A stretch of 64,000 bases of DNA from Parachlamydiales bacterium (lineage in GTDB: Bacteria; Chlamydiota; Chlamydiia; Chlamydiales; JAJFMK01): the NCBI GenBank assembly GCA_963704365.1, contig OY969899.1, positions 1,009,806 to 1,073,805 on the forward strand. The letters run 5' to 3'. Of the stretch, positions 41,288 through 47,294 are shown piece after piece. The position numbers were made by a program, and so were the translations under genes. The notes under the pieces are model-generated. The model did no database searches. It was given only the letters and a program-made list of their open reading frames with translations, and had not been told where the DNA came from. The stretch's first letter is position 1, and each line of letters begins with the position of its first letter.

Positions 41288-44134
41288 CTACTTGGAAATG
41301 GTTTCTTGGAAGGAGGTGATGACAGAACGGGCTCCTTTTCGAAAATCTTCGTCGGGAATCGAATCAAGCAATAACTCTAGCATCATTTTTTCTGCTTCGG
41401 GAGGAATAACACCAAGTTTAATCTCTACTTTTGCCATTTTTTCTAATTCACCTTTCTCTAACTTAATGGGTGGGCTAATAGCGGTTTCTTTCACACTTTC
41501 AGCAAATGGCTTACCTTCTTCAATTGCTTTTCCATCTAATAGAACTCGAATAATCCCTATGTCATAACCTTGTGCTTCTGGGCTAGTAGTGAATTTTCGA
41601 ACATCTGACACATTGATGAGGTAGATCTCGTAATTGCCATCATCATTTTTCACTAACGAAAGATGAGGATATTGATGAGTGATAGGAACTACAAAAGACT
41701 CAGATGCTGCAGCCAAGCTTCCAAAAAAACGTGTTGCTCTTTCGAAAATTGGGGCTTGCCCTGTCCCAGAAAAAAGTGTGAAAAGAGCTGGAATTTTTTC
41801 TTTGGCTAAACCCCAATCAGTAAGAAATGCCTCATGCTCACTAAATTTTTTTTTATCCATTGAGACATTCTTGCCTTCACCACTGTAGAAGAAAGTTCTT
41901 CTTGTCGTTGCATTATCAAGGGCATCCCTCCCTTTATCCCCTTCAGGATAAATCGTTGTATCGGAAAAGATACTTTTAACATCTTCCTCGAGAGTAGGGG
42001 CAGTTTCTGGCCTTGATCCTTCTAATTTTATTTCAGTTCCTTCTAACGTTTTGACTGATTCATCAAGCCTTTTCTTTATTTCGTCAATTCTTTCTTCTAA
42101 AGCCTCAAGTTGCTTTTTTCTTTTGTCCAATTCTAATTGAATCCGTGCACCAAAAGGTAGCGTGGTACTTCTTCCAGCAAGCACATTTATTTCATTTAAA
42201 TCATCTAATTCCCGCTGATAAGCAGTCGCTAATGAAGATTCAGGCTCTACATTTTTTAGCTTCATAGAGATCATCTCTGACCGATCGCTCTGTACTTTTT
42301 GGATTGCAGAATAGGTTTCAGGGGTATTTTTTGCAGTTTCATACAAAGAAATTTCTATGGCTAGAGATAGAGCTGTCTCTCTTTGTGCTAAAAGGGCAGC
42401 TTCATAACTTTCAACAGATCGTAGATCTTGCGTGTAATGGAATGCATACTGGGTCTCTACATTAGGAACGCCTTCATTTGTGATCAAATTAGCATCCATC
42501 AACCCATCATAGACCTCTCGTCGCTCATCCGTTAAATCTCCAAAAAACTTATTAATATTTCTATTAACAATAGTGAGTTCTACTAACGTATTTGCTTTTT
42601 CTACAGCTGCAACAACTTCTTTTAACAATTCAGCTCTACGGGGATTAGCCTGCGCCCATTCAACAAACTCATTTTTTACTTGTCCGACAGCCTCAGCTTG
42701 TTGCTTTCCACCATCATCCTCTGCTTTAAGTTTATCAACCCGATTAATTTTAGGTGTTAATTCCTCTTTAGATTGTCCCAACAAAGATAATTTTGCGTCC
42801 ATTTCCCCTATCTCGAACAAACGGTCTCGAATCGATATCAACCGATATGGAAGCGTCTCTGTTGGCATTTGTCTTTCTTCACGAGCTTGCATCACACTAA
42901 ACAATTGATCAGTACTTTTATCAATTTGCTTAGCTACGAGAGGACTGGAATCTGTTTCTTGGAAAATAAGCGCTCTGTTTATCTGATAAGATAGAGAATA
43001 GAGTGGATCATCTGTAAAGGGTGCCTCTTTTCTTCCTTTCTTCAAGTCATCCAATATTTGGGCTTGATCGCTTAAGAATTTGATCTTATCGACAACATGC
43101 CTTGTCATGAATTGCAAAAACCAAAGACGGACTACCCCAAAGTAAGATTGGCCAGCAGGTCTGAAATCGCTAAGTTTAGATAATTTTGCGAGCACCTCTG
43201 ACTCTTCTGGTGTGATCGGCACATCTGCTCCCGTCAGAACAGCTTGGTAGAGTTTCCGTATAAGAGGTTCGACCCTTTTGTCGTTCAAAATCGATAAAAA
43301 CTCGAGCTTGATTGCAGGAGTTTTGACTTCTAAATAAGGCCTCAATGAACTTAACCATTTGAAAGCATCCTCGCTTGGCATCTTCTCTAATGCTAGAGTT
43401 GTGACAGCTTCTTTTGCTTTGATTGCTTCCAACATAATATGGATAACATCAAAATCGACCGACACCTCATTCAGATATTTCAAATCACTTAGACGGCTCT
43501 TTTGCAATTTGATTTGTTCATCTAAAAGGGTTTTTACTTCAGGATCTAATATCTCTTGAGTCAATTTTTCATAGCTATTCGTCCAATTTTCAAAATTTTG
43601 AAATAGGACATCCATCCTTCTCTTAATCTCAGGAACATTTTCTTCAAATGCTTTGCTTTTATCATTAGCCGCTAAAACCCCTCTTAAGCCATATTTAAAA
43701 TGGGTTTCTTCCCATTTACCGTTTTCATTTAGGCGTTTCAACTGATCTTCTTTTGAAAGATTTTCAAAACCAACAAAAGGGTTTGTCCTCTTTTCATGGA
43801 TTTCTTTGGCCTCTGCTAATTTGCCCAATAGGACTTGAGTGAACATCTGTTTTGTTTTCTTAGTCGCCTGAGCTTCCCTCCCTTTCAAAACTTTTTCAAT
43901 CTTCTCGAGTGTTTTATGGCCACCTTGTTTCTCTAAGCTTTCCAAAGAAGAACGATCACTGAATTTTGCCTCCCGAAATATTTCCAAGGCCTTATCCAAA
44001 AACGTCTGTTGCTGTGGGGAAAGCCTGCTAAGCCTTCCTTTGATGTCCTTTTCACTGATCTTGGAAATTTCCGATACAAAGGTATCTAATCGTTCTGCAT
44101 AAGTTGGTATGTATGGAGTGGGTTCTATGCTCAT
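41288..44134 (-). CDS. Large hypothetical protein (948 aa), paralog of 44131-46311; candidate T3S substrate
   Basis: No signal peptide and no hydrophobic segment by eye. Helical/coiled-coil-rich. It shares N-terminal and about 200 aa of C-terminal similarity with the upstream gene. ATGA overlap with that gene. Confidence 0.8.
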   Translation of the reverse strand: MSIEPTPYIPTYAERLDTFVSEISKISEKDIKGRLSRLSPQQQTFLDKALEIFREAKFSDRSSLESLEKQGGHKTLEKIEKVLKGREAQATKKTKQMFTQVLLGKLAEAKEIHEKRTNPFVGFENLSKEDQLKRLNENGKWEETHFKYGLRGVLAANDKSKAFEENVPEIKRRMDVLFQNFENWTNSYEKLTQEILDPEVKTLLDEQIKLQKSRLSDLKYLNEVSVDFDVIHIMLEAIKAKEAVTTLALEKMPSEDAFKWLSSLRPYLEVKTPAIKLEFLSILNDKRVEPLIRKLYQAVLTGADVPITPEESEVLAKLSKLSDFRPAGQSYFGVVRLWFLQFMTRHVVDKIKFLSDQAQILDDLKKGRKEAPFTDDPLYSLSYQINRALIFQETDSSPLVAKQIDKSTDQLFSVMQAREERQMPTETLPYRLISIRDRLFEIGEMDAKLSLLGQSKEELTPKINRVDKLKAEDDGGKQQAEAVGQVKNEFVEWAQANPRRAELLKEVVAAVEKANTLVELTIVNRNINKFFGDLTDERREVYDGLMDANLITNEGVPNVETQYAFHYTQDLRSVESYEAALLAQRETALSLAIEISLYETAKNTPETYSAIQKVQSDRSEMISMKLKNVEPESSLATAYQRELDDLNEINVLAGRSTTLPFGARIQLELDKRKKQLEALEERIDEIKKRLDESVKTLEGTEIKLEGSRPETAPTLEEDVKSIFSDTTIYPEGDKGRDALDNATTRRTFFYSGEGKNVSMDKKKFSEHEAFLTDWGLAKEKIPALFTLFSGTGQAPIFERATRFFGSLAAASESFVVPITHQYPHLSLVKNDDGNYEIYLINVSDVRKFTTSPEAQGYDIGIIRVLLDGKAIEEGKPFAESVKETAISPPIKLEKGELEKMAKVEIKLGVIPPEAEKMMLELLLDSIPDEDFRKGARSVITSFQETISK

Positions 44135-46520: not shown

Positions 46521-47294
46521 TTACGACAAAGTCTTTAATTTTTTACTGATCTGCTTAACCTTCGGCTTTAGAAAGGCATACTCTTGATTTTTGGTCATTT
46601 TCTCTTTGGCCAGATGGAGATGCTCTTCAGCCTCATTCGGAACTTTTAGGTCGAGGAAACAGTCGGCCAAGAATAATTCGACAGTTGGATCATTTTCCCG
46701 GATGTTTTTACTTTTTTTGTAAGCAGCAATTGCATGCTCGATATCCCCACTTTCTTGATAAGCAAGAGCCAGCCCTAGCCAAAACTCGTACACCCCACCA
46801 TTGAGATGAGAGAGTAGAAAAAAGAGGGAGCGGGCCTTATCGAACGATTTTTCCTGCAAAAAGTGTCTGCCTACTTGATAGAAATAAGACATCGTTTCAT
46901 TTGAAAGAAAAAATGCTTCTTGGAGTGTCTTACCGCTTTTTAGAACAGTATCCAAAAATTCTCCTGAGGCACTAATGGAGGTCATGAATTCGATCCAACG
47001 GTCATATTCTCTGCGAACACGGATCGATTCATCATCATCCAATCCCCCTAAAACCTTTGGCAAACCTTCCGAGAGGGCTTTATATCCCCCTACGATTTCG
47101 TCAAACGTATAAACCCCTTCTGCCTTGATCTCATGCTGGAATTGGGCTAATAGCTGATTAGTATCTTTCAGCGGCTGTGGGTGCCTTGCAAGATAATCTG
47201 CCACCTTCATTTCTGCCGCTTCTGATGCCAAGCGGGAAAAGTAAGCTTCGTCTTCTTCTGTGATTTCCCAATCTTCTTGGATGAACTCGTCCAT
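46521..47294 (-). CDS. Class II type III secretion chaperone (SycD/LcrH/CesD family, TPR) with acidic N-terminal extension
   Basis: The C-terminal half reads GKTLQEAFFLSNETMSYFYQVGRHFLQEKSFDKARSLFFLLSHLNGGVYEFWLGLALAYQESGDIEHAIAAYKKS..NDPTVELFLADCFLDL, the characteristic three-TPR pattern. Confidence 0.8.
   Translation of the reverse strand: MDEFIQEDWEITEEDEAYFSRLASEAAEMKVADYLARHPQPLKDTNQLLAQFQHEIKAEGVYTFDEIVGGYKALSEGLPKVLGGLDDDESIRVRREYDRWIEFMTSISASGEFLDTVLKSGKTLQEAFFLSNETMSYFYQVGRHFLQEKSFDKARSLFFLLSHLNGGVYEFWLGLALAYQESGDIEHAIAAYKKSKNIRENDPTVELFLADCFLDLKVPNEAEEHLHLAKEKMTKNQEYAFLKPKVKQISKKLKTLS

Follow-up and report, generated by a model that had tools for sequence, protein, structure and literature searches.

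The DNA considered here is a 64-kb stretch of contig OY969899.1 (assembly GCA_963704365.1, positions 1,009,806-1,073,805 of the forward strand), which is assigned to an environmental chlamydia (Parachlamydiales). This whole stretch is called the window, and all coordinates are positions within it. On its minus strand, from 41288 to 47294, four tightly coupled open reading frames (ORFs) follow one another in the order chaperone, 67-amino-acid (aa) protein, 726-aa protein and 948-aa protein. The chaperone is of the SycD/LcrH family of tetratricopeptide repeat (TPR) proteins, and the two large proteins are listed as cargo proteins 1 and 2 in keeping with the role proposed for them below. The features of the locus are as follows.

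47295..47352, minus strand: conserved upstream region of the operon (five-genome alignment and promoter scan)
46521..47294, minus strand: SycD/LcrH-family TPR chaperone, 257 aa, 29.7 kDa, isoelectric point (pI) 5.0 (ORF and family models)
46941-47294, minus strand: acidic N-terminal extension of the chaperone, aa 1-118 (conserved, without known homologue)
46542-46940, minus strand: TPR domain of the chaperone, aa 119-251 (TIGR02552 match)
46308..46511, minus strand: small ORF, 67 aa (ORF; same position in five genomes)
44131..46311, minus strand: cargo protein 1, 726 aa, 82.6 kDa, predicted soluble (ORF, BLASTP, hydropathy)
46012-46263, minus strand: N-terminal family module of cargo protein 1, about aa 17-100
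44134-44724, minus strand: C-terminal alpha/beta family domain of cargo protein 1, about aa 530-726
41288..44134, minus strand: cargo protein 2, 948 aa, 107.9 kDa, predicted soluble (ORF, BLASTP, hydropathy)
43850-44104, minus strand: N-terminal family module of cargo protein 2, aa 11-95
Minus strand, within cargo protein 2: helical region, up to about aa 745 (AlphaFold model)
41291-41899, minus strand: C-terminal alpha/beta domain of cargo protein 2, aa 746-948 (AlphaFold model)
41260..41285, minus strand: terminator-like hairpin (pattern match)

The junctions between the genes are very tight. The chaperone stop and the start of the 67-aa ORF meet in tcgTAAGGAGttaacATG, where an AAGGAG ribosome-binding site begins within the TAA stop, 5 nt before the ATG. 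The two junctions further downstream are ATGA overlaps, ctATGATG between the 67-aa and 726-aa ORFs and aaaATGAgc between the 726-aa and 948-aa ORFs. An earlier note on this DNA, made from the letters alone, had described the four ORFs, the binding site overlapping the chaperone stop and both ATGA overlaps, and the sequence reads as it said. Independent gene calls on public contigs, among them the 2.6-Mb contig of an ENA metagenome assembly to which the window belongs (ERZ25039480 contig_18258), contain the same four genes, the 726-aa protein being 725 aa there (second ATG). Judged by these junctions, the four ORFs form a translationally coupled operon.

Just upstream of the chaperone gene, a block of about 55 nt has hardly changed among five genomes; the remaining intergenic sequence varies between about 90 and 510 bp. 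Within this upstream region the promoter scan found a sigma-70-like match (TAGAAA, 16 nt, TATATT) at 47335..47308, and a GAGG Shine-Dalgarno sequence lies 4 nt upstream of the chaperone ATG. By eye, there was no convincing -24/-12 match to a sigma-54-type promoter in the intergenic region. The conserved block is thus the putative promoter region of the operon. It also holds an inverted repeat, TTTTCTA-AA-TAGAAAA (47329-47344, minus strand), which could be an operator for a regulator and not part of a promoter alone. At the other end, the terminator-like hairpin starts 3 nt past the 948-aa stop and has a 10-bp stem with six G-C pairs and a T-rich tail; it sits between the 948-aa gene and the convergent dapL.

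The chaperone, which the earlier note had called SycD/LcrH-type, matches the NCBIfam model TIGR02552 (LcrH_SycD) at an E-value of 4.5e-25 over model positions 2-134 of 136, with residues 119-251. The next best model reaches only 3e-6, which puts LcrH_SycD ahead of the generic TPR families by about 19 orders of magnitude. A secondary match to SctY is weak (1.2e-4, 22.6 bits vs a cut-off of 70). When a profile of four orthologues was run against the Protein Data Bank (PDB), the best match was Scc3 of Chlamydia pneumoniae in its complex with CopN (4nrh_B, 1.1e-9), followed by SycD of Yersinia, AcrH, PcrH and IpgC. All of the natural PDB matches are class II chaperones of type III secretion systems (T3SSs) and cover the same region as TIGR02552; identity to Scc3, counted on the printed alignment, is roughly 26% over 129 columns. 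Like class II chaperones with their substrates, this one is acidic and shares an operon with the genes downstream. These matches classify it as a divergent relative of LcrH_SycD that lies below the certified equivalog.

At 257 aa the chaperone is longer than the matched solved class II chains (142-178 aa) because of its 118-aa N-terminal extension. The extension is strongly conserved, very acidic (pI 4.3) and without a match to any known family in Pfam. Four genomes show almost no variation in two of its motifs, DWEITEEDE and AEMKVADYLA..HPQPL.

The small ORF behind the chaperone is 65-71 aa long in the five genomes, in which it keeps its position, with 26-47% identity. The 67-aa protein has a Pro/His-rich N-terminal part, which is probably disordered, and a PKEG motif; its C-terminal part holds an amphipathic helix (ATVLALLSAIK). 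It matches no Pfam or NCBIfam model, including those for YscE and YscX. Its features make it a candidate co-chaperone, small substrate or regulator.

The 726-aa and 948-aa proteins are related to each other, as the earlier note had proposed. BLASTP aligns their C-terminal stretches of about 380 aa at 1e-14, their N-terminal stretches of about 100 aa at 7e-9 and a middle stretch at 2e-6, which identifies them as paralogues. Neither contains internal repeats that could be found, and no further paralogue was found within the window. The note had also read both as free of hydrophobic segments, and the hydropathy profiles bear this out: the best 19-residue Kyte-Doolittle windows score 0.94 (726 aa) and 1.04 (948 aa) and no relative exceeds 1.46, as against 2.3-2.65 for positive controls from the same window (MarC, NfeD and the TamB anchor). 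By this measure there is no transmembrane segment in any of about 12 members of the family, nor is there the bilobed hydrophobic domain of inclusion membrane (Inc) proteins, with no window of 1.6 or more in the large proteins. Ser, Thr, Pro and Asn abound in the N-termini of all members examined.

The large proteins match nothing in Pfam or NCBIfam, and searches of PDB sequences with family profiles came back empty. The earlier note had suggested comparing them with known translocators and with the DUF582 proteins, the chlamydial effectors of the CT619/620/621/711/712 group. In a Pfam scan of eight family members at E<=1, neither an SseC-like or other translocator domain nor DUF582 was matched. 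A match to a non-secreted housekeeping family, which the note had named as a finding that would speak against its proposal, was likewise absent in Pfam, NCBIfam and PDB sequences.

The structure of the 948-aa protein was predicted with AlphaFold2 from an alignment of eight sequences. The full-length model has a mean predicted local distance difference test (pLDDT) score of 75. Its first 10 residues have low pLDDT, and 75% of residues 1-745 are helical, in line with the helix-rich character that had been guessed from the letters; an alpha/beta domain follows. Modelled alone, this C-terminal domain reaches a pLDDT of 84.4 and a predicted template modelling (pTM) score of 0.85. A Foldseek search of the PDB, the structure comparison that the note had called for, gave no significant match for either the full-length or the C-terminal-domain model. 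The C-terminal domain is thus a confidently modelled fold with no significant match among solved structures.

The top Foldseek ranks for both models were held by EspG/VirA, at E 0.1-0.6, TM-scores of 0.32-0.36 on the query and a root-mean-square deviation of 9-10 Å, in alignments of about 210-235 columns with 9-11% identity. EspG and VirA, which are T3SS effectors of enteropathogenic Escherichia coli and Shigella, resemble the large proteins in being soluble and having an alpha/beta core, although the structure match is not significant. Catalysis by EspG/VirA as Rab GTPase-activating proteins uses a pair of Arg and Gln residues; the invariant residues of the C-terminal domain include two Arg and no Gln. 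The Pfam scan gave no match to any EspG or VirA family for any member. Membership was rejected on the low TM-scores, the insignificant E-values and the missing Arg/Gln pair, and the resemblance is kept as a lead only. Structure matches to NTF2-like proteins, LptE and MiniBAR are as insignificant as those to EspG/VirA.

Related contigs, at least eight of them, carry the cassette at one and the same place, with omp85/tamB on one side and dapL-dapA-dapB on the other, and the 948-aa protein is on record on nine contigs. What follows the chaperone varies among them.

Window: 67 + 726 + 948 aa
L009: 67 + 935 aa
L018: 67 + 932 aa
L011: 71 + 370 + 889 aa
L013: 65 + 697 aa, then gcpE

The 935-, 932- and 889-aa proteins are orthologues of the 948-aa protein, to which they are 32-34% identical. 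The counterpart of the 726-aa protein in L011 is the 370-aa protein, which lacks the C-terminal domain. The same domain is absent from the 697-aa protein of L013, and both of these proteins (L11_370 and L13_697) keep the N-terminal module. This module is the only part common to every member of the family. It is also the best conserved part of the 948-aa protein: against the three orthologues, residues 11-95 are 49, 49 and 40% identical, the C-terminal domain 37, 38 and 28%, and the helical middle 20-37%.

The rate at which the genes of the locus change can be seen in their identity to the window.

Omp85: L009 83%, L011 84%, L013 68%
DapL: L009 69%, L011 70%, L013 64%
DapA: L009 78%, L011 70%, L013 58%
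Chaperone: L009 86%, L011 82%, L013 71%
Small ORF: L009 44%, L011 34%, L013 30%
948-aa protein: L009 34%, L011 32%, L013 no value

By these figures, change in the large proteins is much faster than in the chaperone or in the genes that flank the cassette. The chaperone, with orthologues 86, 82 and 71% identical, is as conserved as its housekeeping neighbours and the core envelope machinery.

The family of the large proteins also seems to be confined to a small clade. When 1.84 billion cluster representatives were searched exhaustively with a HMMER profile, 12 proteins came up at E<=0.001, of which 11 are clade members or fragments of them and one is spurious, so that by this search the family is found only in this clade. 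The spurious match, P0016, was rejected as a member: it is a repeat protein built of 'DGN.EIYVMNADGS' units and matched only profile positions 843-875. Word-index searches with the 948-aa protein and with the alignment of the C-terminal domain returned nothing; these negatives carry no weight because the query itself was not returned, and the exhaustive search was used instead. Scans of genome and metagenome contigs found no more distant version of the locus, only the same clade.

Some of the related contigs have peculiarities of their own. L006 (ENA ERZ25039528 contig_152187) matches window positions 37001-46401 at 99.76% identity with nine gap positions and comes from the same organism. Because of its indels, six gene calls (325+494+91 and 80+419+190 aa) stand in place of the two large genes, and five of these calls are stored as separate representative proteins (P0005, P0006, P0008, P0011 and P0012). 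Pseudogenisation was considered and rejected; sequencing error is the most likely cause of the fragments because the identity is so high and several indels fall in homopolymer runs. In L013, which among the relatives with the full locus is the most distant, gcpE/ispG separates the cargo gene from dapL and a 581-aa orphan separates dapA from dapB (8296-9933 and 11970-13715), so genes turn over at the flanks of the cassette as well. L021 (AACY023311455.1) is a 1.6-kb contig on which an omp85 fragment (65% identity) divergently adjoins a chaperone orthologue (64% identity). Its AACY prefix is presumably that of a marine shotgun-survey set, so the clade with this locus may extend beyond the other sample types, which are soil and wood as judged by sample names alone.

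The reading that fits these findings best is that this environmental chlamydia carries a clade-specific cassette for type III secretion effectors, and we consider it probable, with a good deal of room for doubt. It fits best because a conserved class II-type chaperone is combined with cargo that is soluble, clade-restricted, fast-diverging and variable in copy number and that shares an N-terminal module. The large proteins would then most likely be injected host effectors rather than pore-forming translocators. The earlier note had left the choice between a chaperone-dedicated effector pair and a non-canonical translocator set. The effector pair agrees with the behaviour of the cargo and with its Ser/Thr/Pro-rich N-termini, and the translocator set is at odds with the lack of transmembrane segments, of an SseC domain and of the anchor motif discussed below.

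In the mechanism that we envisage, the chaperone would bind the conserved N-terminal module of each large protein in the bacterial cytosol, keep the 83- and 108-kDa proteins competent for secretion and bring them to the injectisome. The module of about 90 aa would thus be the region for both secretion and chaperone binding, and the first 10-20 or so residues, Ser/Thr/Pro-rich and presumably disordered, would act as the secretion signal. The 67-aa protein might be a co-chaperone, or else a small partner that is co-secreted or has a regulatory role. Once injected into a protist host, the large proteins would bind host targets with their helical region and their C-terminal domain. An arms race with these targets could drive the fast divergence, the duplication and the loss of domains.

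A number of observations count against an effector cassette. The LcrH_SycD match of the chaperone, at 87.9 bits, is below the NCBI equivalog cut-off of 104.8, and the 118-aa extension is absent from canonical class II chaperones. In solved class II chaperone complexes an extended peptide lies in the TPR groove; the N-terminal module is modelled as a folded helical bundle with a pLDDT of about 80. No host-like domain or enzymatic motif was recognised in the large proteins. The P/VxLxxP anchor motif has no occurrence in 16 non-chaperone proteins, made up of 12 members of the large family, small ORFs and L9_77; this has low weight because the motif is reportedly absent from chlamydial translocators too (PMC13466201). 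Lastly, there are no sct genes in the window, the genes of which are housekeeping genes or other orphans only. That the genome has a T3SS is deduced from its assignment to the Parachlamydiales, a T3SS having been reported in all Chlamydiales studied so far (PMC4333871).

One question is whether the operon is related to type III secretion at all. A TPR adaptor could act with large helical cytoplasmic or envelope-associated scaffolds inside the bacterium, for instance in development, division or envelope biogenesis. TPR domains are generic, the chaperone scores under the curated family cut-off, and the neighbourhood is a housekeeping one, with omp85/tamB adjacent and no sct gene within 64 kb. 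Chlamydial T3SS genes and chaperones are, however, normally scattered over the chromosome (PMC2878342), so that an isolated cassette is not out of place. The lead of LcrH_SycD over generic TPR families and the purely class II natural PDB matches also argue for secretion, and an identity of 32-34%, where the neighbours have 69-84%, is unexpected for housekeeping scaffolds, as are the restriction to one small clade and the variable copy number. We therefore consider a role inside the bacterium unlikely.

Another question is whether the 67-aa protein is the real client or partner of the chaperone. The large proteins would in that case be effectors transcribed together with this pair that rely on a different chaperone or on no chaperone. 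As in YscG-YscE-YscF and YscY-YscX, the gene of a TPR-type chaperone adjoins that of a protein of about 65 aa; here the two are directly coupled, and the position and size of the small ORF are kept in five genomes. Class III TPR chaperones act with a partner of about 66 aa (PMC13466201), and the chaperone has its weak match to SctY. This match is far below that to LcrH_SycD as well as below its own cut-off, the 67-aa ORF is without a match to any model, YscE and YscX included, and there is no needle-like gene in the operon. By composition and alignment, the small protein is apparently mostly disordered with one C-terminal helix and no two-helix hairpin. The module common to all large proteins at the locus would most simply be what meets a conserved chaperone, and we regard the 67-aa protein as quite an improbable main client.

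The likeness to translocon operons is nevertheless real, and the earlier note was right to draw it. In the LcrH_1 operon of C. pneumoniae, lcrH_1 is followed by CPn0810, which is small and hydrophilic, and then by CPn0809 (CopB) and CPn0808 (CopD) (PMC4760673). The cassette has the layout of this scc2/lcrH_1-CPn0810(CT577)-copB-copD operon, with a SycD/LcrH chaperone first, then a small ORF and then two larger proteins, so the note's image of translocator slots is apt as a resemblance. The other chlamydial translocon operon compared, scc3/lcrH_2-copB2-copD2, encodes the best natural solved relative of the chaperone, Scc3. With the hydrophobic translocators YopB/YopD, IpaB/IpaC and CopB/CopD, the large proteins share their position downstream of a class II chaperone. 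Unlike CopB/CPn0809, which has three hydrophobic domains and an SseC-like domain, they have neither, and unlike CopB and CopD they are about twice as long, evolve fast compared to their chaperone and vary in number. The acidic 118-aa extension also sets the chaperone apart from those of chlamydial translocons.

A non-canonical translocon or tip set, in which a third, diverged copy of the lcrH translocon operon would place large hydrophilic proteins at the needle tip or the host membrane as translocators of a hydrophilic kind or as an extension, is very unlikely: the chaperone's closest natural PDB match serves translocators and a gatekeeper and the chaperone is conserved like core machinery, but identity is 32-34% in the cargo as against 82-86% in the chaperone, and the cargo has no transmembrane segment in any member, no SseC or other translocator match and no anchor motif, is confined to one small clade, and comes as one or two large genes with the C-terminal domain missing in two of the proteins, unlike an essential apparatus.

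The effector cassette has precedents in the chlamydiae. In the Waddlia genome, SycD-like chaperone genes adjoin hypothetical proteins that were proposed as effectors in 2010 (PMC2878342), and in 2020 the class II TPR chaperone Wcw_0348 of Waddlia chondrophila, a homologue of CT274, was found to pull down the soluble effector Wcw_1706 (PMC7143554). As in that pair, an environmental chlamydia here has a TPR class II-type chaperone, encoded next to putative substrates that are predicted to be soluble and do not look like translocators. Wcw_1706 is said to be in all Chlamydiales genomes, whereas the cargo of the cassette is clade-restricted and of an unrelated family, and it is encoded in the same operon as its chaperone, as a paralogous pair. 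In view of these precedents, the arrangement of a chaperone with orphan putative effectors is already known in chlamydiae and the protein family is what is new, and the novelty implied by the earlier note was overstated.

A bolder form of the proposal is that a translocon-type operon has had its pore-former slots taken by giant soluble proteins with an unseen C-terminal fold. Either the chaperone class was re-purposed to carry soluble effectors (83-108 kDa), which it would recognise by a folded helical module at the N-terminus rather than by an extended anchor peptide, or the proteins are a new hydrophilic tip or translocon component. We consider this unlikely. If it is true that the chaperone binds the N-terminal helical module, the cargo range of class II chaperones would extend from hydrophobic translocators to very large soluble proteins. 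Apart from that, the cassette is the sort of find to be expected in a chlamydial genome.

Little is known of the effectors of environmental chlamydiae, which are largely specific to species; a chaperone-linked cassette offers an unusually well-anchored candidate pair. Its locus is the same in at least eight genomes, and its cargo genes number one or two and may have or lack the C-terminal domain; this natural comparative series could be used for mapping the chaperone-binding module and for studying effector turnover. Since its model is confident and matches no solved structure significantly, the C-terminal domain would be worth studying for its structure and its host interactions.

Other genes in the window also deserve mention. 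A 937-aa orphan (23047-25860, plus strand) has no Pfam match and has hydrophobic segments at about aa 39-58 and 83-115; these paired N-terminal segments resemble the bilobed domain of Inc proteins. A 988-aa orphan (30981-33947, minus strand; 981 aa on public contigs), also without a Pfam match, has a Ser/Pro-rich N-terminus and one hydrophobic segment near its C-terminus, at about aa 884-908, and is possibly secreted or membrane-anchored. Two tandem paralogues of 419 and 420 aa (55922-57181 and 57758-59020, both minus strand) are 38% identical (E 8e-77), with no Pfam match and no hydrophobic segment. Tandem Sel1-repeat proteins of 685 and 620 aa (15984-18041 and 18187-20049, both plus strand) are 25% identical over about 650 aa; Sel1 repeats are common in host-interacting proteins of intracellular bacteria. 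Finally, the dapB ORF (38536-39222, plus strand), if its GTG is taken as the start, shares about 125 nt with the 3' end of the PLD-like gene before it. Its gene call is 167 aa here, with DapB_C only, vs 205-222 aa with DapB_N in relatives, so its start site or N-terminal domain may be unusual.

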